DNA from: Curvularia clavata
Taxonomy: Eukaryota
Direction: 5' to 3'
Assembly: GCA_023920165.1 (NCBI GenBank)
Contig: CP089276.1
Span: 1,922,001 to 1,986,000, forward strand
Length of the DNA stretch: 64,000 nt
Shown: positions 10,029 through 64,000 of the stretch, piece after piece
How positions within the stretch are numbered: position 1 is the first letter of the stretch
How the letters are laid out: each line of letters starts with the position of its first letter
Position numbers and translations under genes: made by a program
The notes under the pieces: model-generated
Databases searched by the model: none
Seen by the model: the letters and a program-made list of their open reading frames with translations, nothing else
What the model was told of the DNA's origin: nothing

Positions 10029-11528
<1,500 letters not shown>

Positions 11529-14869: not shown

Positions 14870-15315
14870 GCAGCGTGGCCTGATCATCGTATCGCTGGCC
14901 AGGATAGCCAGCACGTTAGACTCTGCTAAAACACGAGCTTTTCCTGCTATAATGGATCCTGAGGCTACAGCTTTATGAGTCATTCTGATTAACACAATCC
15001 TTGTCACGGTTAATTTCCGATTCGTCAAAGGGCCATGTCACCAAATTACAGTAATAAAAAGCTTGTTTCTGAATATGGATATCAATGCGATTCCTACACA
15101 GCTGGTTAAGAAATTAAACACTAACACTACCTTCCAAGCCACCAGACTAATTGACTTGCAATCAAGTATGTTTACAGTTATGTGCGCTTTGTAAAGCGGG
15201 ATTCACATAGACAAAGGAAAACACATCAAGGGCGTGACGCAGCGAGACCCATAGTTTAGACTTGAAAAATGTGTGTGATCCGCTAAATACAAGACATGAT
15301 GACTCTTTCAAAAGC

Positions 15316-17006
15316 TTAAGAGGAAAGAGCATCAACGCAGCCAAAGTGCTGCTCAACACCGTACGCGCCAGCAGCCTTCCAGGTGTCGTCCTGGAAAGAG
15401 AAGACACAGGCGTGAGAGCCAACCTTCTCCTGGATGCTCTTCATGGCGATCTTCTGGTCCTCCACGCTAGCGATGGCCTTGCCGTTGGCCTGGCCAGAAG
15501 AAGGCCAGCCAATCTCGCCAATGTACTTGCCCTTGCCAGCGGCGCCAGGGCACACCTTGGCGGCTTGGTCGAGTTGCTGGGCAGCAAAGTCACCAGCCAT
15601 ATCGGCGCTGATGGACTGGGTGAAGTAGGGCTGGACCTGGCAGACAAAGACGTCAATGTGGTCGCAGAGGGCAGCACCCATCTCCTCCCAGATGTTGACA
15701 GGCTCAGTGGTGGTGACGGCAACAGACGAGGGGAAACCAGCGCCCTGGAGCTCCTGGCGAACGTGGTCAATGTAGGAAGCGAGCTCCTCGGGCTTGCAGT
15801 TGCCGTTGAACATGCACTCGTTACCGACGATGACCATGGCGACAGAGTCCTTGGGGGCCTTGTTCTTAATGTCCTGGAGCTGCTCGTCGGCGTACTGGGA
15901 GAAGCAGCCCTTGCCGTCCTTGCCACCAGCCTCGAGGAAGATACCGTAGATGATCTTGAGTCCATGCTTCTGGCACTCGGGAACGACGTGCTCGAAGACA
16001 CCGCAGTCAGTGCTGTAGGAGCGGATGGTGGTGAAGCCAAGATCAGAGATCTTCTTGATATCGGAGGCAATCTCCTCAGCAGTCTTGCACTGACCAGACT
16101 GGGCGTAAGGAGTGTAGGTGATGGCCCACTTGTCGCCGTTGGTTACAATGTGGCCATTGCCACCAGCGGGGGCAGAGGGCTTGGGCTTGTCACTTCCTTG
16201 GGAGGGAGTGGGCTTTTCTCCAGAGGGGTAGGTAGCGGGCTTGCTCTGCTCAGGAACAGCAGGGTAGGAAGGCTGGTTGGGCTTAGGGGTCTCAGGCTGG
16301 CTGGGCTTGGACTCCTTGGGAGGCTGAGGAACAGCCGGGTAAGCAGGCTGGCTTGGCTGGGGAACAGCCGGGTAGGCTGGCTGGCTCTGCTGAGGAACTG
16401 GGGCAGGTCCAGTGGGCTTGGGGGTCTCCTCAGTGCAAGAGGTAGACTCAGGGACAGCAGGCTTGCTTTCCTGGGGAACGGCCGGCTTGCTTGGCTGGGG
16501 GACCGAAGGGTAACCGGGCTGGCTCTGCTGAGGAACAGCGGGCTGGCTCTGAGGGGGAACGGCAGGGTAGCCAGGCTGGCTCTGCTGGGGAACGGGGGCA
16601 GGTCCAGTGGGCTTGGGGGTCTCCTCAGTGCAGGAGGTGGACTCCGGGACAGCAGGCTGGCTCTGCTGAGGGACAACAGGGTAGCCAGGCTGGCTTTGCT
16701 GGGGAACAGCTGGGTAGGCAGGCTTCGAGACCTCTGGGACAGAGGGCTTGGGGGTCTCAGGGGTGGCAGTGGGGTAGTGAGGAGCTGGGTGCTCTGGAGG
16801 AAGTTAGGATACTACTTCATCTTTTCAGCAATTGCTCCGTGGAAGAACTAACCTGGGGTCACGTAGACGGTGGTGTAGACCGTGCAAACATCAGCCTGAG
16901 GAGCCACTGGGTACTCGTGGCGGCGCTGGTGGAAACCAGCATGGGCCTTGTGCTGAGAGGCGAAGACTGACCCAACGAGGGCAGCGGTAACAAAGGCGTA
17001 CTTCAT
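15316..17006 (-). CDS. Secreted GH17 cell-wall beta-glucanase/glucanosyltransferase (BtgE/Scw11-like) with Pro/Gln-rich repeat linker; 2 exons (17006-16853, 16793-15316)
   Basis: Signal peptide MKYAFVTAALVGSVFA; catalytic domain WAITYTPY..GQCKT..IRSYSTDC, VIVGNE, YIGEIGWPS and FSFQDDTWK..GAYGVEQHFG. Confidence 0.85.
16230..16760 (-). repeat. Intragenic imperfect tandem repeats encoding (A/G)YPAVPQQSQP units and two copies of PAVPESTSCTEETPKPTGPAPVPQQSQP
   Basis: Near-identical ~60-bp blocks start at about 16402 and 16597, interspersed with repeated ggctggctctgctg.ggaac motifs. Confidence 0.85.
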
Positions 17007-28117: not shown

Positions 28118-29083
28118 TCATGGCGAAGCAGGCCTATCACCATTCTTATCATCACCCTTATCGCCGCCCTGTGCATCATCACCGCCTTCAGCCTTGGGCT
28201 TGTGCTTTCTCCTCCTTTTGCGGGGTGCAGAATCTTCGCGCTCACCCCGCTGACTGTCTCCGCTAGCAGCATTTGTTGTAGATGGCCGTGGTTTCTTAGT
28301 AGAATTAGACTGTGTAGCTGTCTTCTCCTTCTTGGGCTTCTTGACGCTCAGTGGATTAGGGCCTTTCGGGCCCTTTCGCTTCTTTGCCTTGGGTTTTGTC
28401 TCTCCTGTAGACTGATCGTCCATAGAGCGACCACCCTCTCCGTCTTGACCATCGTCTTCTCGTTTCCTCTTCAATGGAGTATCTGGCTTGCGCTGTCCTT
28501 TGAGTCCCAACTTGAACTTTGATTTTTCCTCTCGCTCGCGGTGCTGCTCGGTAATATCAGCCATGGATTCCATGAGTACCACCGACTTGGCCAAATATAT
28601 AATGGGAACACCAGCAATCGTTCGCATTTTTGCGCGCGTGTCTGGGTCGTTGGCCGCAACTACGTATCGGTGTTTGTTTGTCGCATTGTCCTTGGGATCA
28701 ACCACAGAACTCAGACAATCGTGTGTGCTAAGCGGTTCATCAAGGTCCTGGTGATTGCATCGGCGGCGCTCGTATTCCTTCGCTTGTAATATGAGGGTCT
28801 CGTTCTTGGGCTTCGCATTGTAGAGGTGTCGCATGTCGCAAGTCGTGATCATAGGCTTCACTTGCCCCCCGAGCATCTTTTGTATGCGCGCGATAAGGTC
28901 GATCTTGAAATTGTATGCATCTTGCAGGATCTGAGAGTCGAGCAGGACTTGGTACGGTTCGCGGAATCCAAAGTTGATTTCGTATTGGTGGAGCTGTTTC
29001 TTGTACGCCTATGTCGCTGTCAGTGACAAGCCTGAATGTAACCGACAATGATTCGAATCTACCTTTGCGCGCTTCAACTTCAT
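28118..29083 (-). CDS. UTP23: rRNA-processing PIN-domain protein Utp23; 2 exons (29083-29063, 29008-28118)
   Basis: MKLKRAK|AYKK..FGFREPYQVLLD, ERRRCNH, NKHRYVVA and KGPKGPNPLSVKKPK. Confidence 0.92.
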
Positions 29084-29388
29084 GGCGACGATGTGTATGG
29101 GGGTGTTGGATGATTGCGGGCAAGAAATTTAGAACGGCGGCCAAAAGTTCAGAATGCGCGGAATTTAGGCCGTGCATGGACCACGCTACTGATTCGCATC
29201 CGGTACCCTGCGGCAGGTGCGACACCCCCGTCACTCCGCATTCGTGAATCTGCCCTGAGGGGACCAAGACCAGTCGCGCATACTTTGGTCTTTGCTCTCA
29301 CTCCTTACGCAAAGATACGACACGCGTTCCGCAATTGACACCATATCGTTTGGTCTCTCCATGCTTTTCTTACGGTAGTCCCACCAGA

Positions 29389-32300
29389 ATGAGCGAGAAC
29401 CCCGCCGAGACCCCCAAGAATGAGGGAAATAGTACAGCGACCACGGAAGCCAAGAAAGGCGCCAACGAAGGAGTCGAGTATGATGATTTCGGTCTACCGA
29501 TAAGGAAAAGGCGACCACGAACTCCAGTCGAGGATAGCTCAGACTCGGACTCGGAGAAGTTTGAGGATGCCGTAGCTTCCAAAGAGGACAGCACAGAGCA
29601 AGCCAACGCACCCGAGGCCAAGGAAGATACACTAGATGGAAAGGATGAAATGGCTAAGGGTTCGAAGGCGGTGCTAGAGAACACTGAGGCGGAGAGCAAT
29701 GCGCAAACCAAAGCCAACACGCCGGCGGCAGAGCCAGTGGTGACAGCCAAACAGGAGCGACCCGGAGAACAGTCTGGAGAGCAATCTGGAGATCAGTCTC
29801 GGGAGCAGCCTGAGACGAAACCTACAGAAACCAAGCAGCATGTCCCAGAAAACATACAGTCCCCCTCAACTTCCGAGCCCTCGAAACGCGTCAGCATGGC
29901 TGATTCACACCGCCACGAAGCGAACGTCGCATCTATATCCGAGTACTCGCACCAACACCTTGTTTCACAAGCACAACAGGAGGACAAGAAGAAGGATATG
30001 GACGACGACGATGATGAAGGCTGGCAGACTATGCCCTCATATGCTCATTATGACATGTACGATGACGATAACAGGCTTATCGCGAAAGAGAACGCGGAGG
30101 CGCTGGAAGATATGCACGGCTATGGGAATGTCGGAGGAGCTGCTAAGGGTTATACTAGAGTTATCATGGACGATGACGCTGATTCGCAAACGAGCATGGA
30201 CGATAACACTGCATATCTCTTCAAAGAACGAAGTACTGCCTTGGCAGACGAAGACGAAGAAGGGCGAGATCCACTCTCGCAGATGCAAGCCACCAAGAAC
30301 CTTCTTACTGAGGGACAGCGTGTCGCCTACGTCGGACTGGTACGACTAGCCACCAAGGAAATGGAAAAGAAGTTCTCCGAGTTCAAGTCAACCAACAGAA
30401 AGCTCAAGAAACAGCTGGAGCTACAGTCGGCGACAACCAAGATGTGGTCGCAAAAAACTATGGTCAAGCTGTATGGGCATATGGACATCAATGCGTCTGA
30501 GCAGATCATGATTGAGCAGTTGTCAGAGCACGGCGTTGTGCCCGCTGATCTCACGCCAGCACTAATGCAGAATGCGCGAGTTAAAAACCCGGTAGCAGAA
30601 GACACAGAATCGGTCAAGGGAGCACACTCTACCAAACCATCCATATCATCGCCTCGTCCTGAAACGCCAGCGGAAACGTCCAAATCGAAACAATTTTCAT
30701 CACCAGACTCGGAAGGGCATACTTACTCACCACCTCCTCCACCCTATGACGAACATCAAGATGACGGGTATGATTACCCAGAAGCCAGATCACCGTCCCA
30801 GCTCCCAACAAGCAAAAACCTTGATATCGATCTCCGATGGACTGTCTTGTGCGATCTGTTCCTGGTTCTTATTTCGGATTCTGTTTATGATTCGCGCTCG
30901 AGGGAGCTATTTGAGCAAGTTGGTCGGTACCTTGGCGTGGACTGGCTGGAGACTTGCCGATTTGAGAAGCGTGTTACAGATGCACTGGAGATGCAGGAAC
31001 AGGCTGACAAGGAGAACTGGAATGAAGATGAGCATATGATCAATCGTGCAAAACGGGCACGTAACAAGCGGCTGGCGTTCATGGGTCTTGCGACTGTTGG
31101 TGGCGGACTTGTGATTGGCTTGTCCGCAGGCCTTCTTGCTCCTGTTATTGGCTTTGGGCTCGCAGCAGGTTTTAGTACCATTGGTGTGGCTGGCACTGGC
31201 ACTTTTCTGGCGGGTGCTGGAGGTGCTGCCATCATCACGTCGACTGGTGTTGTCACTGGCAGTACCATTGGTGTCCGAGCGATGAACAGGCGTACGGGTG
31301 CAGTGAAGACATTCGAGTATCGGCCTCTGCACAACAACAAAAGGACTCATCTCATCATTACGTTGGCAGGCTGGATGAATGGCAAAGTGGATGACGTCCG
31401 ATTGCCATACAGTACTGTGGATCCTATCATGGGCGACATTTACTCTGTTCTTTGGGAGCCTGAAATGCTGAGAAGTATGGGTGACACCATCAACATTCTT
31501 GCTACTGAAGTGAGTGTGATCAGCTGATCAGCAGGGTACGTATACTGACAGTGTCCAGGCTCTTACACAAGGATTGCAGCAAGTCTTAGGAAGCACCATT
31601 CTCACAGCACTCATGTCTGCTATGACGCTACCACTTGCTCTTACAAAGTTGTCATACTTGATTGATAACCCATGGATCGTTTCGCAAGCTCGAGCCGATA
31701 TGGCTGGACTTATTTTGGCAGACTCACTAATCGATCGAAACTTGGGAACAAGACCTGTCACTCTCGTCGGCTTCTCATTGGGCTCAAGAGTCATTTTCTC
31801 ATGCCTGAAGGAGCTTGCGGAACGTGGTGCGTTTGGTATCGTTCAGAACGTGTACATGTTTGGCACACCAGCAGTGGCCAAGTATGACGACTACGTCAAG
31901 GCCCGGTCTATTGTGCCTGGAAGGTTTGTCAATGGGTATGCTACCAATGATTGGATCCTAGGTATGTTGCCTGTTTTGTGTTTGCCGTCCTTGGTATTGA
32001 CATGTCTAGGTTACCTCTTCCGCGCAACCAGCGGTGGTGTTATGCGCGTCGCAGGTCTTGCCCCTGTGCAAGTCCCCACGATTGAGAACATCAATGTGAC
32101 TGAGCTCGTGCCTGGTCATATGGCTTACCGTGCCGCAATGCCCAAGCTGCTTCGTGAAGTCGGGTGGCTTGTTGAATCGGATGAATTTGCTGAAATCGAG
32201 GATCCGGATCCGGACAACCACGAGCTGCGGCAACGTGAACTCATCAACGAGATTGAAGAAGCGCGAAGAGAGCTGGAGAAGAAGGCGCAGGAGAAAAGAG

Positions 32301-33058
32301 GCAGCAAACTCAGTTGGTGGAAGAAGAAGAAAGCCGCAAAGAACGATTGGGAAGTCTATGACGAGAACTCGAATGTCGCGCCTCCAGGCCACAAGAAGCT
32401 GGACCAGGACCAGGACCCAGCGAAATTGGCCGAAAATCAAATCATGTTCGACATTGATGCGATACGAAAAGAAGTCGCGGGTCTAGCTGCCGAAAGCAAA
32501 GAATACAACGCGGAGTCGGAATTCAAGATCAAAGAGATCAAATCCACCCTTCCGCCCATGAAGATCGATATTGCTACTGTTCCTCCATCAGAAACAGGCA
32601 ATAAGCCCTACGCCAAGCTCCGGGAGACGAAGAGCTACAACGACAGTCTGGGCACATCGAGCAGCACGGCGAAGCCCGCTTCCAATGGAACGCACACGGC
32701 CAGCGGATGGGAAGAATACGACGAATTCGAGCACGAGCAAGAGCACATGGAAATGACTTTTGATACTTCCTTCCGCGACCCGTCACCCCCTCGTTCTAGT
32801 ACTCCCAATTCCACCAACAAGTCCCCACTCCCGCTATCACCCCTTCCAGCACAGCCCTCTCGCGCAGACGCCTCATCGCCATGGGACGACGACCCCCTGT
32901 CTTCCTCACACGGCGCGAGGCCAGCACTCCGCTCAGTCAAGACAGACAGCCACGCTACGTCGTTAGAGCCGCCACCTGACCTGGGACATAACGCGTGGGC
33001 AGACGAGTTTGAAGATGATTTTGGTCAGGAAAAAGAAGTCAAGATGAGCTTTATGTGA
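29389..33058 (+). CDS. DUF726 / TMCO4-like membrane protein (yeast Mil1-like); introns ~31510-31558 and ~31962-32009
   Basis: DLRWTVLCDLFLVLI..YDSRSR, MGLATVGGGLVIGLSAGLLAP and RPVTLVGFSLG.RVIF. Confidence 0.85.
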
Positions 33059-50911: not shown

Positions 50912-53855
50912 ATGGTCAAATCCTACAGGTAATGCGCATCTACAGCGCAACCCACGCAAAAGCTTCTGCTGACCTTCACGCAGCAAGTATGAGCAGACCG
51001 ACGCGTTCGGCGTGGTCGCGACTGCTACCTCGAACATTGTCTGGACTCCGGAAGGCCTGACCCAGCCGGGTTCCAATCGCCCTGCTGGTGCTGGGCGCGC
51101 ATACGCCGCCGCGAACGAGGAGGTCTTGTGCTGGGATATAAAGAAGAGTGAACTTGTGAGCAGATGGCGCGACAATTCGTGCACCGAAGAAGTCACCGTC
51201 ATTCGTCGAAGCGAGGTGGACCCAGATGTCTTCGCTGTGGGCTATGCGGATGGAAGCATACGTATTTGGGATGCGCGAACGTCGACGGTCATCATTAGCT
51301 TCAACGGACACAAGTCAGCAGTCACAGTCCTCGCTTTTGACCAAACCGGAGTCCGATTAGCGAGTGGTTCCAAAGACACAGACATCATCATATGGGACCT
51401 GGTCTCGGAAACAGGTCTGTTCAAGCTAAGAGGACACAAGGGTCAGATTACTGGTTTACACTTTATTCATCCCGAGAATGCGCCACAAGAGGATGGCGCA
51501 GGCGACGAAGACGTCGATATGGACCCGGATCAAGCATTCCTGCTCTCCACTAGCAAGGATGCGCTGATCAAGATCTGGGACGTCACCACCCAACACTGCA
51601 TCGAGACACACATAGCGCAAACCAATGGAGAGTGCTGGGCACTTGGTGTTTCTCCAGATGGCAGCGGCTGTATCACAGCAGGCAATGATGGTGAGCTCAA
51701 GGTGTGGGCGATCGACCAAGCCGGTTTGCGAAAAGCCAGTTCAAAGATTGGTGAAGCTGCAGACTTGGAATATCTCACTCCAAGGGGCATCCTATACCGA
51801 CAAGGCAAGGATAGAACACAGGGCATCTCATTTTACTCAAAGGCCGACTACATCGCGGTGCATGGTGCAGAGAAGGCTGTCGAAATTTGGCGCATAAAGA
51901 CGCCAGAAGAGGTTAGGAAGAGCCTGATCAGGAAGAGAAAGAGAAAGAGGGAAAAGGCCAAGAGCGAGATGAAGGAAGACGCGCAAGACGAGGCTGATGC
52001 CGACGAGAAGGTCAACGTGGCTGATGCCGAAATTGGTGAAGTATTTGTGCCGTACGTGACTGTACGAACAGCAGGAAAGGTGAGGTCGGTTGCGTGGATG
52101 CATATTAAAGGAACCAAGAAGTTGCAGCTTCTTGTCGGAACCAACAACAACCTCATCGATGTCTACGAGGTGCCGCAAAAGAGCAAGTCGAAGAGCGAGG
52201 AAACACCCGACTATTCACGAACATTGGCTGTCGAACTCTCTGGGCACAGGAACGACGTGCGAGCGCTCGCACTTAGCTCGGATGACCGCATGCTAGCATC
52301 CGCTTCAAGCGGAGGCCTCAAGATCTGGAACGTGAGGACACAGAATTGTTTGCGCACGCTCGAGTGTGGGTATGCTCTCTGCTGCGCATTCCTTCCCGGA
52401 GACAAGATCGTCGTTGTGGGAACGAAAGACGGCGACATTGAGCTATATGACATTGCAGCGTCCACTCTGCTCGACAAGATTTCTGCGCATGAAGGAGCCG
52501 TGTGGACTATGCAGGTGCACCCTGACGGCAAGTCTCTCATCACTGGCAGTGCCGACAAATCAGTCAAGTTCTGGAACTTTGAAATTGTTCAAGAAGAGAT
52601 ACCAGGAACCAAGCGAACAACACCTCGTCTCAAGCTCATCCAGTCCCGTATTCTCAAGGTTAACGACGATGTTCTGAGCGTGCAATTTTCGCCCGACTCA
52701 CGACTCCTAGCTGTTGCCACCCTCGACAATACCGTCAAAGTCTTCTTTGTGGACTCGCTCAAGCTTTTCCTCAATCTGTACGGCCACAAGCTACCTGTAC
52801 TCAACATGTCCATCTCCAGCGATAGCAAACTGATTGCTACTTGTTCCGCTGACAAAAACGTGCGCATATGGGGCCTAGACTTTGGAGACTGCCATAAAGC
52901 GCTCTTCGGTCATGAGGACAGCATTATGCAGATCTCATTCATCCCACACCCAGTCGATGGTGATGAACGCCACATCCTCTTTAGTGCCAGTAAAGACAGA
53001 ACAATTAAGAGCTGGGACGGCGACAAATTCCAGCAGATTCAGAAGTTCAAGGGCCATCACGGCGAGATCTGGGCGATGACTGTAGCGCGGACAGGTGACT
53101 TCATCGTCACAGCCAGTCATGACAAGAGCATACGCATTTGGACGCGATCGGATGAGCCCATCTTCCTGGAAGAAGAGAGAGAAAGAGAACTAGAAGAAAT
53201 GTACGAAAAGACACTCGCGGCAAACCTCGAAGACGACGAAGACCCCAACGGTGAACGCGCCGAAGCAGTCGACGCCAGCAAACAAACAATCACTACCCTT
53301 ACAGCTGGTGAACGCATCCAAGAAGCCTTAGACCTGGGTGTCGCAGACCTGGAAGTCGTTCGCGACTGGGAAGTCCAAAAGAAGTCCAATCCTAAGATCG
53401 CACCACCACAGCGTGATCCTCTCTTCCTCGCTCTCGGAAACATATCCGCTGAACGTCATGTCCTAAACACTATCTCCAAGATTCCAGCTGCACAACTTCA
53501 CGATGCACTGCTTGTTCTGCCCTTTTCCTCTCTACCTGCTCTCTTCACATTCCTGGCCATCTGGGTACGCAAGCAGTGGAACATCACCCTGACCTGTCGC
53601 GTCCTATTCTTCATGCTCAAGACTCATCAAAAGCAGATTGTTGCGAGCAGAGAGCTAAAAACTGTAATTGAGGGAATGCGTAACGACCTCCGCAATACGT
53701 TGATGGGTAACAAGGACCTGATTGGGTTCAATGTTGCAGCCATGAGGTTTGTTGGCGAGAGGGTGGATGAGGCGCGGTTGGTTAGATGGGAAGACGTAGA
53801 CAAACTGGAGGAGGAGAAGAACAGGAAGAAGAGAGGGTTTGTTGATGTAGCATAG
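50912..53855 (+). CDS. DIP2: U3 snoRNP WD40 protein Dip2/Utp12; intron 50929-50983
   Basis: MVKSY start, multiple WD40 repeats, LFLNLYGHKLPVL..SADKNVRIWGLDFGDCH and a C-terminal Utp12 domain (DALLVLPF). Confidence 0.93.
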
Positions 53856-60953: not shown

Positions 60954-61880
60954 GTTGGTGATGCTTGACAGCAGGTTGCTGGTGGACAAATGCGGTTAAA
61001 GTACTCGCAACCAACGGAGATCTGGTTCCAGTGGTCACGAGGGGTTGGCGAGAGAAGATGGAGAAGAAGAAGAGAATTCCGGCCTACGAGAGGTAGGTGA
61101 TTGCCTAGACGTTAAACCCGTCCCGGGTTTAAGGTCAGTCGTGATTGGGCTTTGTGACTCACCATGGCGTGCATGGGAAGCTCCATCCAACAGCTTCTAG
61201 ATCTCGGTCACAGAAATAGGCACCGGCAACCTTGCCGATGTTCGCTGCTGTTATGTTGCTGCGCGGCCGAGACACCGAATGTACAATCTAAACGAGAATG
61301 TGGGGGTGGGGTACGTCATAGTCGACATCTTCGCTCCCGTGCATATCTTGACCACTCTCTCTCCATCCTCAAAACCACTTTAGTATTCACATATTTTGTA
61401 CACAAGAGGACACTGAGGTGTCCGCTATACTTCAAATGTTTCTCCTATGTGACTAACACCGATCTATTCTGCTTGGCGATCACATGTAACCAACTTTTTT
61501 GCCATGCCAGGCAACACCACCAGATTCTGGAACTGCGTGCATTCACCTCGAACAACGCATGAATAAAGCGGATATTGTTACAGTACCGTTCAAAACTGCC
61601 CTCACCCTTTGCGCAAGCGACAATATTGTTGGGTCCCTGTTAGTCTAGGAAATCCTTGCTAATTCCAACTAATCGCGGAGTACTGGGACCTACTAGCTCT
61701 AAATAAGCTAGCTTGCAATCAGGAGGCACTCTTATATGTAGAATAGGTGCAATGCAGTGCTGTACGCATCGTAGTCGATATAAAGTTACACCATATTCAT
61801 TGATGTTTGCTGACCTGTTTATGCTTTCTATAGTTCCTCCCGTATGTGTCCTCAAGCGTACACTTTAGATCTAGGTCTCC

Positions 61881-62256
61881 TCACTCCGCTTCCCACCATT
61901 CTAGGATTGCCAAAGAAGACTTAAGATTAAAATGACCAGCTTTTAGCACTCGCTGACACGGCTGTACACATTTTCGTACTAAGACTATAGCCTCTACATT
62001 CCGGCTTTATATTTTCTACACAAAGGCTAGGTTAGCAATATTAGTTGGCGTGGCAGGATAGTCTGCTCTGAGCTTTGTATTAAAAACCACTACTATTTGC
62101 GCGGATAGGTCGTTAGCATTGTTGTATCGCCAATAGTGCCTATGTATCAATACTAGATTAAGCATGTTTGTCATTGGGATAATCGGCTCTAAGCTTCGTC
62201 TTACTTGTCTCTATTATCTACACAAATAGCTTCTTAGCGTTGTTCCACCGCCCTTG
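61881..62256 (-). pseudogene. Degenerate C-terminal TPR-repeat remnant of an NLR (NB-ARC/NACHT-TPR type)
   Basis: Manual translation: QGRWNNAKKLFV*IIETSKTKLRADYP / frameshift / MTNMLNL..RYNNANDLSAQIVVVFNTKLRADYPATPTNIANLAFV*KI*SRNVEAIVLVRKCVQPCQRVLKAGHFNLKSSLAILEWWEAE*. This matches the fungal NLR TPR consensus QGRW.EAE.L.VQVMET.K.KLGADHP.TL.SMANLA. Confidence 0.85.
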
Positions 62257-62326
62257 GCCCAAAGACTACATCGAGCAGCCGCTCCAGTACTGTGGCACGT
62301 GGCCTCTACTATAGCTCTATACGTAC

Positions 62327-63433
62327 TTATCTCCTCCCGAACACAGCCCCGTGAACTCCACCGTTGATGACTCCAGCTTGTTGGCCCGAGTTCTGACTAC
62401 CAAATGTAACGTTCATTGCATGCGTTGCAGGTTGATGCGAAGACACATTCGCACTTTTCTCCCGGTCTTCCACTTGTACAGCAGGAATTGTTGACAACAG
62501 CCCCTTCGCATACGCAGCGGCAGTTGCCGCCGCATAGTTCTGCCAACCCTTGTTCTTGTGAGAGTCTGCATAGTCACAGATGCCTCGGATGACCACACAC
62601 GGGTGTTCTTCCATAACACCGGCAGCTTCCATCTCAAAGCAGATTGCTTCATGCTCGAGATGGACCCTGTTGCGTTCCACGGCAGATATCTGTAGCTGAT
62701 TGCTCGAGGCGATATTGCCAAAATGGACAGACGGCTCATCAGTCGGTCGTGTGGCAGACTCCCCGCGTTCAAAACGCGAAATAGTGTAGTCTGCGTCGCA
62801 GCAATCTTTGCAATCGTCAAGCTCAGTGCCTTGGTGCTGGTAGCCGTCCTCGAAGAGCCTGTCGCGAATGGGGCCTGGGTCATCGTACTGGCCTTGTCGC
62901 TTCTCGTCGAGCTTAAGACGCATCTGCTTCAACGTATCGCAGATATTAATCTTAGACCACCCTTCCGATCGAAAATTGTTAACAGCGACCAGAAGATCAC
63001 CAGGAACGCCGTTAGTGTGTCCACGAAACTTGAGGCATCCTTGACCCTGCCAAGCGCCCTTGTCGTATTGCAACACCCCACCGTGGTTACCCCGCGGATA
63101 ACTGACGACTACGTCTCCTAGCACAATCTCCGAGGCAGCCCCAGCTGGTCCATAGCGAGGCACGCCGCCAGCGATACCGACGAGGAAGAAGTACTTAATA
63201 TTTGGAAATCCATCGCGCATTTTCTCAGCAAGAATTGCGGCTTGGCTGAGCCCGATTCGCCGCTGCACCCCCATGACGACCTTGTGCACTCCGATTCGGC
63301 CGCCTAAATAGAAAACGCCCTTGTGTTGGACCTCGTCCTGGGGATACTCCTCATCAAACACAAGTCGTGCAGCTTCCTTTTCTAAAGGCAAGGGGGAGAT
63401 CCACCCGATGGTGAAGTGATGATTCGAGGCCAT
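62327..63433 (-). CDS. PNP_UDP_1 (purine/uridine phosphorylase, Pfs-like) domain protein with C-terminal putative amyloid signalling motif
   Basis: FTIGWISPLPLE, LVGIAGGVP, IVLGDVVVS, VHFGNIAS.N, CFEMEAAG and IRGICDYADSHKNKGWQNYAAATAAAYAK; tail NVTFGSQNSGQQAGVINGGVHGAVFGRR*. Confidence 0.92.
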   Translation of the reverse strand: MASNHHFTIGWISPLPLEKEAARLVFDEEYPQDEVQHKGVFYLGGRIGVHKVVMGVQRRIGLSQAAILAEKMRDGFPNIKYFFLVGIAGGVPRYGPAGAASEIVLGDVVVSYPRGNHGGVLQYDKGAWQGQGCLKFRGHTNGVPGDLLVAVNNFRSEGWSKINICDTLKQMRLKLDEKRQGQYDDPGPIRDRLFEDGYQHQGTELDDCKDCCDADYTISRFERGESATRPTDEPSVHFGNIASSNQLQISAVERNRVHLEHEAICFEMEAAGVMEEHPCVVIRGICDYADSHKNKGWQNYAAATAAAYAKGLLSTIPAVQVEDREKSANVSSHQPATHAMNVTFGSQNSGQQAGVINGGVHGAVFGRR

Positions 63434-63753
63434 GCTGCAAAAAGAAAAATCTCAATGATGGCTCCAAAGACGGTTGCAAAACTTGGGTGTTTGTGGTAGG
63501 TAGGAGATGTAAGAAAGTTATAGGCAGCAGTGCAGATAAAGAGCAGCGCTCAGCCTTGTCACTCAGCCTCGTCGCAGCCATCAATCAGGTTTTTCGTGAC
63601 AAGCTTGGCCTTTGATCATGATCAACGATTTGTGGAAATAACGGCATATGCTCATAAACAGCGTTAGGATTAGTGAATCGAGCAAGCTAGATAGCACTGT
63701 ATCTACATTTTCCGCCCACTAATTTACTACTAGACGATATCACGCTTGTTGCA

Positions 63754-63963
63754 CTATCGCACACTAGAGAATACACCAGTTTTCAACTTCGAGAGAGTTA
63801 TACGCCTAGCCCAACGATTCTTCCACAGCCACATAACAACCATCACAACGGCCATAGGGGCTGTGAAGGCCCAGTAAACCCAGAAATGGTGTGACACAGT
63901 AAACGACGAACTTCCTATGTCTCCACTGGGCTCAAAAGAAAAGAAGCTCATCCCAAAAACCGT
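63754..63963 (-). CDS. Last exon of a CorA-like transmembrane-domain protein (gene extends beyond the window)
   Basis: TVFGMSFF..FTVSHHFWVYWAFTAPMAVVMVVMW resembles the GM(N/S)-loop plus final TM helix of fungal CorA-like domains; preceded by a GCTAAT branch site and AAG acceptor. Confidence 0.7.
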   Translation of the reverse strand, partial: TVFGMSFFSFEPSGDIGSSSFTVSHHFWVYWAFTAPMAVVMVVMWLWKNRWARRITLSKLKTGVFSSVR

Positions 63964-64000
63964 CTTCAATCCAGCCATTAGCCAGGTATTGTATCAAATT

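Follow-up and report, generated by a model that had tools for sequence, protein, structure and literature searches.

A nucleosidase gene with a C-terminal PP-type tag in Curvularia clavata as a likely free-standing effector of NLR amyloid signalling

In the model described for fungal amyloid signalling, oligomerisation of a NOD-like receptor (NLR) folds the N-terminal motifs of the receptor into an amyloid template that converts the motif of the effector (PMC5485727). The core of one motif family, PP, is given as NxGxQxGxN, pseudo-palindromic about a central Q and ~20 amino acids (aa) long (PMC9815663, PMC5485727). In the HELLP/SBP/PNT1 system of Chaetomium globosum and the HELLP/PNT1 system of Podospora anserina, a ~20-aa pseudo-palindromic GxQxG motif stands at the effector C-terminus and at the N-terminus of an NB-ARC/TPR receptor (PMC5485727). 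We analysed a 64-kb window of Curvularia clavata DNA (64,000 nucleotides; assembly GCA_023920165.1, contig CP089276.1, positions 1,922,001 to 1,986,000, numbered here from its first letter) and found a gene of the same anatomy on its minus strand (62330..63433). The gene encodes a PNP_UDP nucleosidase that ends in a PP-type motif, and we consider it likely that it is a free-standing effector of a fungal NLR amyloid-signalling pathway. It differs from the PNT1 systems in its enzyme, since the enzymatic effector of C. globosum is a SesB-like lipase. It also differs in its motif, a distinct variant (NSGQQAGVINGGVHGAVFG) without a match to the Pfam PP model PF17046, and in its adjacent NLR, of which only a relic is left.

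PP motifs in this setting have precedents. In the catalogue of PMC9815663, PP and sigma motifs accompany pore-forming and enzymatic effectors alike. The NLR07/PF01048 pairs tabulated there, for example in Penicillium camemberti, have PP in the NLR N-termini and at the PNP_UDP C-terminus (~residues 346-363), as here (supplement file 7). These rows record genome co-occurrences in other taxa, and 30 of the 237 NLR07 rows of that file (rows 4-33) hold no Pleosporales entry. An earlier sequence-only reading of this DNA had presented an amyloid-activated, nucleotide-degrading effector as a mechanism with little experimental characterisation; the novelty so implied was overstated, because PP motifs on PF01048 proteins were already in that table. 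A C-terminal tag on a free-standing PNP_UDP protein with an adjacent NLR is also described for PUASM of Colletotrichum gloeosporioides (EQB50682.1/EQB50683.1), where fibrils, thioflavin T binding and prion behaviour of green fluorescent protein (GFP) fusions were demonstrated (PMC9815663). The experiments on PNP_UDP-linked motifs in that paper concern PUASM peptides and GFP fusions, not PP/PNP_UDP pairs. The PUASM receptors are NACHT or NACHT-WD40 proteins, whereas those related to the present locus are NB-ARC-like with TPR repeats, and the PUASM pattern FxGxGxQxxGxGxF does not occur in the window. A limited search of the open-access literature found no study on amyloid templating as a switch for the enzymatic activity of a nucleosidase. 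Systems of this kind are known and catalogued, and the present member has its own effector-side variant; the modestly interesting additions here are a tag shared by two effector types, an apparent cassette transfer and a dead NLR beside the gene.

The effector open reading frame (ORF) begins with an ATG at 63433 and runs uninterrupted to a stop codon at 62327-62329 on the minus strand, giving 368 aa in a single exon. Its orthologues are similar in size (365-368 aa), and metatranscriptome contigs are colinear along the coding sequence without joints. The protein has three parts, all encoded on the minus strand: a nucleosidase domain (PNP_UDP_1/MTAN-like, residues 1 to ~318; 62480..63433), a linker (residues ~319-340; 62414..62479), and the tail, a PP-type motif that we call class A (NVTFGSQNSGQQAGVINGGVHGAVFGRR; 62330..62413) with its core, F344-G366, at 62336-62404. 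The minus strand of 62327-62416 thus reads as one Met, the 28 residues of NVTFGSQNSGQQAGVINGGVHGAVFGRR and the stop, and the protein ends in ...HAMNVTFGSQNSGQQAGVINGGVHGAVFGRR. The linker was delimited by its variability among orthologues and by predicted disorder: in the AlphaFold2 model, residues 324-368 (linker and tail) have a predicted local distance difference test score (pLDDT) below 50, which fits a flexible linker and a tail that would be unstructured in the monomer. The sequence-only reading had recognised a phosphorylase-family domain, a linker and a C-terminal tail, and the ORF, Pfam, the PDB profile and the AlphaFold2/Foldseek comparison all bore out this layout.

The domain matched Pfam PNP_UDP_1 with 30.0 bits (gathering score 25.1; E 4.4e-7). 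We used an alignment of 52 homologues (A3) both for a profile search of the PDB and for the AlphaFold2 model. The profile retrieved MTA/SAH nucleosidases (MTAN), with 4jos as the top match (E 3.1e-8). The model (mean pLDDT 81.6; predicted template modelling score, pTM, 0.81) was likewise matched by Foldseek to MTAN structures (E ~3e-13, target-normalised TM 0.74-0.78), among them 4bmx (E 2.9e-13, target-normalised TM 0.77). Six residues, E18, E267-M268-E269, R283 and D287, are invariant in 52/52 aligned homologues. The EME and R..(C)D of the effector align with the MTAN motifs E-M-E and R..(S)D. The titles of the mutant PDB entries 1z5n and 1z5o (Glu12Gln, Asp197Asn) indicate E12 and D197 as catalytic positions of MTAN, and E18 of the effector would be equivalent to E12 by position only. 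With an MTAN-type domain and a complete set of catalytic residues, the main part of the protein resembles an active N-ribosyl hydrolase of the MTAN fold, as far as alignment and model can tell. 'Phosphorylase' is a family label, and 'PNP_UDP' is a misnomer for this effector, which is a nucleosidase rather than a phosphorylase. MTAN-family enzymes are active as dimers. We also observed that H200, C208, C212 and H237, which lie in an insertion relative to bacterial MTAN (residues ~190-237), are invariant in the 52 homologues; they may form a metal-binding site particular to the fungal effector clade.

PNP domains linked to fungal NLRs suggest, by analogy, ATP or dATP as the probable substrate. 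In a Hyaloscypha variabilis NLR this domain is reported to release adenine in vitro from ATP more than from dATP and to be toxic in Escherichia coli (bioRxiv 10.1101/2023.01.24.525353); MTA/SAH nucleosidase activity had been predicted earlier (PMC4986451). The same preprint describes Cap17-like immune ATP nucleosidases, including this H. variabilis protein ('NLRN'), with a PNP/MTAN-fold NLR effector domain as here. The PNP domain of NLRN is fused to its NLR, whereas the effector in the window is separate and amyloid-tagged, and the likeness to Cap17 is one of analogy. A fused, all-in-one NLR architecture is also seen closer to the window protein: P0080, with a domain 66% identical, runs straight into ..ALVGLGGVG.

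In six-frame translation the window has a single N.G.Q.G pattern, which lies in the effector tail. The tail reads N-S-G-Q-Q-A-G-V-I-N. It matches NxGxQxG exactly and its closing N stands one position further along, a spacing that NLR-side motifs (N-A-G-F-Q-A-G-I-V-N) have too. We built a hidden Markov model (HMM) from 40 NLR N-terminal motifs only and searched it against the 1866 six-frame segments of the window. The effector ORF was the sole significant match (19.8 bits, E 4.7e-5), and the runner-up segment scored 3.8 bits. The isolated 40-aa tail scored 23.3 bits, compared to a maximum of 10.9 among 1000 composition-preserving shuffles. The same HMM recognised 93/147 effector proteins. Judged by its sequence, the tail is a divergent variant of the PP family; we file it there because of its signature and its relatedness to receptor-side motifs, not because of the Pfam model. 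PF17046 did match the tails of orthologues with the more common PP form, class B (P0073, 27.1 bits against a cut-off of 23.2; P0006, 16.9 bits), and it matched the NLR-side 32-mer no more than the effector tail.

Other motif identities were rejected. PUASM was dismissed on the absence of its pattern (0 matches in the six-frame window), and HRAM/HET-s and sigma on the lack of a match of the tail to Pfam HET-s_218-289 or NACHT_sigma (PF17106) at E<=10; three orthologues (P0047, P0049, P0077) do carry PF17106 tails. A RHIM identity was rejected for want of an [IV]Q[IV]G tetrad, the only match to which in the window (28506-28517) lies outside the effector gene. G-x-Q-x-G, the basis of the PP-RHIM relation (PMC5485727), is common to the tail and to mammalian RHIM (RIPK1/RIPK3); the tail differs in having neither the tetrad nor a kinase context. 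The sequence-only reading had called the tail 'PP/RHIM-like' and suggested a scan with motif profiles. The PP part stands through the NxGxQxG core, and the RHIM likeness holds for GxQxG and fails for the tetrad; in the scan the sequence core fits PP, and the PF17046, PUASM, HRAM and sigma profiles or patterns were unmatched.

The class A tail is conserved and is borne by two types of protein. A search for PNP_UDP homologues gave 7934 proteins with E<=0.001 among 8000 scored; within the best 120, which were listed, five orthologues carry the class A tail (P0002-P0005, P0076). When the last 40 residues were searched among longer proteins, 30 of 32 candidates matched, and these comprise the 5 PNP_UDP proteins and 25 HeLo-like proteins or pieces. 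Four of the 25 are full-length (254-281 aa; Ophiobolus, Decorospora, Pyrenophora seminiperda and Paraphaeosphaeria) and match PF17111; the rest, 21 pieces of 101-157 aa, come from proteins of this kind. In the Pfam release used, PF17111 is PigL_N, 'pigment biosynthesis cluster protein', which we take to be the family formerly named Helo_like_N, the HeLo-like domain. NCBI names some PF17111 proteins 'azaphilone pigments biosynthesis' or 'Cytochrome P450', and for the tag-bearing proteins of 254-281 aa these names are probably misleading. The exact 19-mer NSGQQAGVINGGVHGAVFG is present in 27/32 SGQQAG-containing proteins of Pleosporales, PNP_UDP orthologues and HeLo-like proteins alike, so that the conservation by which the sequence-only reading had wished to see its claim checked extends beyond the nucleosidases. 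The linkers ahead of the 19-mer are wholly unlike between the two protein types. Nucleotide differences within the tag core are nearly all synonymous (alignment A2 of the window and loci L001, L003, L004 and L005, described below). The shared tag suggests that HeLo-like and nucleosidase effectors are fired by the same receptors.

Receptor genes stand beside tag-bearing genes in related loci. A scan of metagenome contigs with the tail alignment (A1) gave 123 pattern matches, from which five loci were confirmed (L001-L005). L001 and L002 are near-identical, and both are orthologous to the window: window 62303-63996 aligns with L001 6902-5184 at 86.6% nucleotide identity over 1720 nucleotides (nt), up to the last bases of the window. 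L001 has an intact, divergently transcribed NLR gene, the start of which lies 2215 bp upstream from the ATG of the nucleosidase gene. The receptor begins MPPAIWFGDANTGFQAGVINGNVDATFHQAP; an intron follows (GT donor, GCTAAC..AG branch/acceptor), then ..IPFGHDKDFVERG..LVGLGGVG and, after a second intron, KSQLAIE.. leading into a 783-codon ORF with weak NACHT/NB-ARC matches, DUF7779, and nine TPR_10 and seven TPR_12 stretches. In L003 and L005, a HeLo-like gene with a class A tail has NLR genes on both sides, which start MASTISFGDANAGFQAGIVNGPV... Tag-bearing genes are thus flanked by NLR genes in 4/5 loci (L001, L002, L003, L005); L004 is only 2 kb long. We liken L001, L003 and L005 to the PNT1 systems, in which the genes are clustered and a single receptor is shared by effectors of more than one type (PMC5485727).

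The N-termini of the receptors carry the expected kind of motif. Searching proteins with the NB-ARC portion of the L001 NLR, we listed 120 homologues. A start Met and the stretch ahead of the P-loop are present in 52 of them; the count excludes the remaining 68, whose gene models are truncated at the 5' end. Among these listed matches, 41/52 complete homologues start with a ISFGDANAGFQAGIVNGPV...-type motif at residue 6-7, close to the positions 5-9 given as typical for PP motifs in NLRs (PMC9815663). The remaining 11 N-termini are sigma-like, HET or other, including a truncated PP motif in P0193. NLR N-termini with a motif resembling the tail, which the sequence-only reading had proposed to look for, are therefore common, and L001 has one at a distance of 2.2 kb from the orthologous gene. 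Species with tail-bearing effectors also have PP-type NLRs, and in several of them the two lie on contigs of equal length, as with P0135/P0174 of P. seminiperda and, in Paraphaeosphaeria sporulosa, the tail-bearing P0144 with the NLRs P0184 and P0188. In Boeremia exigua the consecutive locus tags g522 and g523 denote a nucleosidase with a class B tail and an NLR; adjacency of effector and NLR in these named genomes is indicated by record labels, not by DNA.

At the nucleotide level the tag appears to have moved between effector genes as a cassette that includes the 3' flank. Homology between the nucleosidase and HeLo-like loci starts exactly at the V-T-F-G codons and continues through the stop codon and 3' flank into a transposon (L001 6795-7559 against L005 9995-10762, 88.6% over 771 nt), and alignment A2 showed no similarity between them upstream of the motif. 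The identity of the tag cassette is at least that of the orthologous genes (86.6%), which points to descent from one copy by recombination and not to convergence.

The distribution of tails among the nucleosidases was assessed in 93 homologues with a domain of normal length. Class B, the common PP form (FGNNN.GFQAG...), accounts for 37/93 and the shorter class C (..FGNN..G[IV]Q[GA]RD.HGN[IV][QH][IVF]G or ..SIQAG.INGNIQFG) for 17/93. Class A was found in 5/93, HRAM-like tails in 5/93 and sigma tails (PF17106) in 3/93, and in 26/93 the tail is absent or truncated. On a tree of the domain only, obtained by a quick search without bootstrap and open to recombination within the domain, the tail labels need 11 changes compared to a possible minimum of 4; class A needs 4 changes, at least 3 of them forced by well-supported branches. 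The nearest relatives of the window protein (clade with a Shimodaira-Hasegawa-like approximate likelihood ratio, SH-aLRT, of 99%) include a protein with an HRAM-like tail. Class C comprises P0020, P0027, P0031, P0032, P0035, P0036, P0040-P0045, P0050, P0052-P0055 and P0072. Its tails end in VQVG/IQFG/IHIG-like tetrads, nearer to the RHIM core than the window tail, and some NLR N-termini (P0167, ..GFQARDIHG..) resemble partners for this class.

A fuller reconstruction, which we put forward tentatively and hold to be somewhat less probable than its alternatives taken together, is that copying between HeLo-like and nucleosidase genes took along, as one cassette, the PP motif with its stop codon and 3' flank, a DDE transposon and, at first, an NLR gene. 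A nucleosidase would thereby have been wired to the receptor of the HeLo-like protein in one step. The tag variant is identical on the two effectors and differs from every receptor motif found, so templating would run between differing motifs, possibly with co-aggregation of the effectors.

The DNA downstream of the tag in the window is consistent with the former presence of an NLR gene there. The stop codon and 19 nt at the start of the 3' untranslated region (UTR) (62308..62329, minus strand) are common to the 3' ends of HeLo-like genes, and window 62308-62410 is 90.3% identical to L005 9995-10097 over 103 nt (blastn). Next to it lies a 43-bp fragment of a DDE_3 (Tc1/mariner-type) transposase, ..DYIEQPLQYCGTWP.. 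(62262..62304, plus strand), with blastn matches to L005 10491-10533 (88%) and L004 1273-1313 (90%). L005 has an intact 354-aa DDE_3/HTH transposase (ORF 10184-11248, minus strand) between the tag-bearing gene and the next NLR, and decayed copies or fragments of it occupy the corresponding place in L001 (7071-7595), L004 and the window. The last TPR units and C-terminus of an NLR follow as a decayed relic (..LEWWEAE; 61884..62256, minus strand), with three in-frame stops, one frameshift and GC content down to 0.40. Beyond it is a homologue of an NLR 3' flank (61579..61883, minus strand), which aligns with L001 (window 61591-62081 against 576-1061) and with L005 (window 61579-61970 against 14344-13957) at 69.7% each (blastn). 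The order in L005 is a HeLo-like gene with its tag (to 10078), the transposase on the opposite strand (10184-11248), a second NLR (from ~11250) and its 3' flank (to 14344). The window is colinear with this order minus ~0.4 kb and ~3.2 kb; therefore its genome once had an NLR directly after the tag, now destroyed. An origin of the relic by repeat-induced point mutation was unsupported: among 132 substitutions, 51 are GC-to-AT and 42 AT-to-GC, and TpA/ApT is 1.35 in the relic and 1.45 in the intact L001 counterpart.

Several results weigh against control of this gene by an NLR through its tail. PF17046 did not match the whole protein (E<=1) or its last 57 aa (E<=10). The effector-side motif agrees with the NLR consensus at ~11/24 positions and with the L001 NLR at 12 of the first 17, with G-Q-Q-A-G on the effector side vs G-F-Q-A-G on the NLR side, so templating would need to work between related but differing motifs. 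No NLR carries the effector-side variant (G-Q-Q-A-G) among the 32 word-sharing candidates. A HMMER search of the tail against 1.84 billion representatives (E<=0.001) gave two matches, both effector pieces (P0141/P0147), and no NLR, which is weak evidence because a 25-aa motif hardly reaches significance at that database size. The tail could accordingly be an NLR-independent tag for self-association or localisation, for instance through homo-oligomers, through condensates or by aggregating solely with the HeLo-like protein; that GQQAG...GGVHGAVFG is nearly identical on both effector types and differs from every NLR-side motif seen would fit this. We regard it as improbable, as the HMM built from NLR motifs recognises the tail significantly, NLR genes flank the tag genes in four of the five loci, and the architecture is the one published for PP, sigma and HRAM systems (PMC5485727). 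That the tail is a functionless, low-complexity C-terminus rich in G, N and Q would agree with its shortness, its low model confidence and the missing Pfam match. An invariant 19-mer across species and two unrelated N-terminal domains, core changes that are nearly all synonymous, and a score of 23.3 bits where 1000 shuffles reach at most 10.9 make such a chance origin very hard to credit.

Further results of this kind concern the receptor and expression in C. clavata itself, and they bear on whether the effector has been orphaned, its controlling NLR lost and the protein silent, constitutive or otherwise regulated. The only NLR sequence in the window is the decayed relic next to the 43-bp transposase fragment (46% identity to L001 NLR aa 687-783, E 2e-26, tblastn). 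Neither NACHT nor NB-ARC was found in the 13 long window ORFs tested, and the six-frame translation of the 64 kb holds no second PP motif. An intact partner NLR in this genome would be an extrapolation from L001. The window ends 567 bp upstream of the effector gene, and an L001-like divergent NLR, if colinear, would begin ~1.6 kb past that end. Loss of the receptor nevertheless seems unlikely to us, if less so than an NLR-independent tag: the effector ORF is intact, its tag core is identical to that of other species, L001 keeps an intact upstream NLR and the window is colinear with L001 to its last bases, and motif pairs encoded by non-adjacent genes are known (PMC9815663). Metatranscriptome contigs that cover the gene are a weaker point on the same side. 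All contigs aligned from the runs X19 (4/4) and X20 (2/2) lie within 62284-63475, at identity >=99%, an extent that equals the effector gene plus 43 nt of 3' UTR. One of them has C>T at 62334, which changes the penultimate Arg to Lys outside the motif core. These contigs are a weak hint that the gene is transcribed, weak because RNA contigs could stem from library DNA. Run X7, labelled 'RNA?', covers flanks and gene alike, which suggests DNA, and flank stretches of 61500-64000 without RNA-contig cover carry no evidence of silence.

As an NLR-controlled effector, the protein likely works by the published model, since it is built like the effectors of the PP, sigma and HRAM systems. A receptor NLR with PP motif, NB-ARC and TPR parts would sense a ligand through its TPR repeats and oligomerise, its N-terminal PP motifs would fold into a cross-beta template, and this template would convert the C-terminal PP motif of the effector. 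Stacking in the fibril would gather the nucleosidase domains, and their forced proximity along the fibril would switch on nucleotide degradation, leading to growth arrest or cell death. Since HeLo-like proteins carry the same tag, one receptor could fire membrane-damaging and nucleotide-depleting effectors together.

These findings leave the known framework unchanged. A well-conserved PP-tagged nucleosidase, with its receptor motifs and a sister HeLo-like effector that bears the same tag, is a practical system for asking if an enzyme can be turned on by the formation of fibrils, and if dying fungal cells are depleted of ATP while their membranes are attacked. Transfer of the tag with its 3' flank, as indicated at the nucleotide level, illustrates how such pathways can be rewired.

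We made further observations around the gene and elsewhere in the window. Window 63754-63993 (minus strand) is the conserved counterpart of L001 3975-5420 (plus strand), a gene between the nucleosidase and the NLR. The last exon of the L001 gene encodes a CorA-like ..FGM(S/N)FF.. segment followed by a transmembrane helix; window 63754-63993, L001 4230-4727 and L001 4675-4995 had no Pfam match. An X7 contig departs from the window sequence at 63963 with a 255-letter loose end; strains may differ structurally at this point, from which the NLR side of the locus would extend. Long overlapping ORFs at 15238-16851 (plus strand) and 15316-16803 (minus strand) hold many G.Q.G and QAGxAGEQ-type repeats; the plus-strand ORF had no Pfam match, and the region is probably a low-complexity repeat. 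A DUF726 protein extends over two overlapping plus-strand ORFs (29248-31527, profile 2-156; 31520-33058, profile 154-291), which suggests an intron or a frameshift at ~31520. The WD40 protein at 50973-53855 is a nucleolar protein of the WDR3/Utp12 type, not an NLR.

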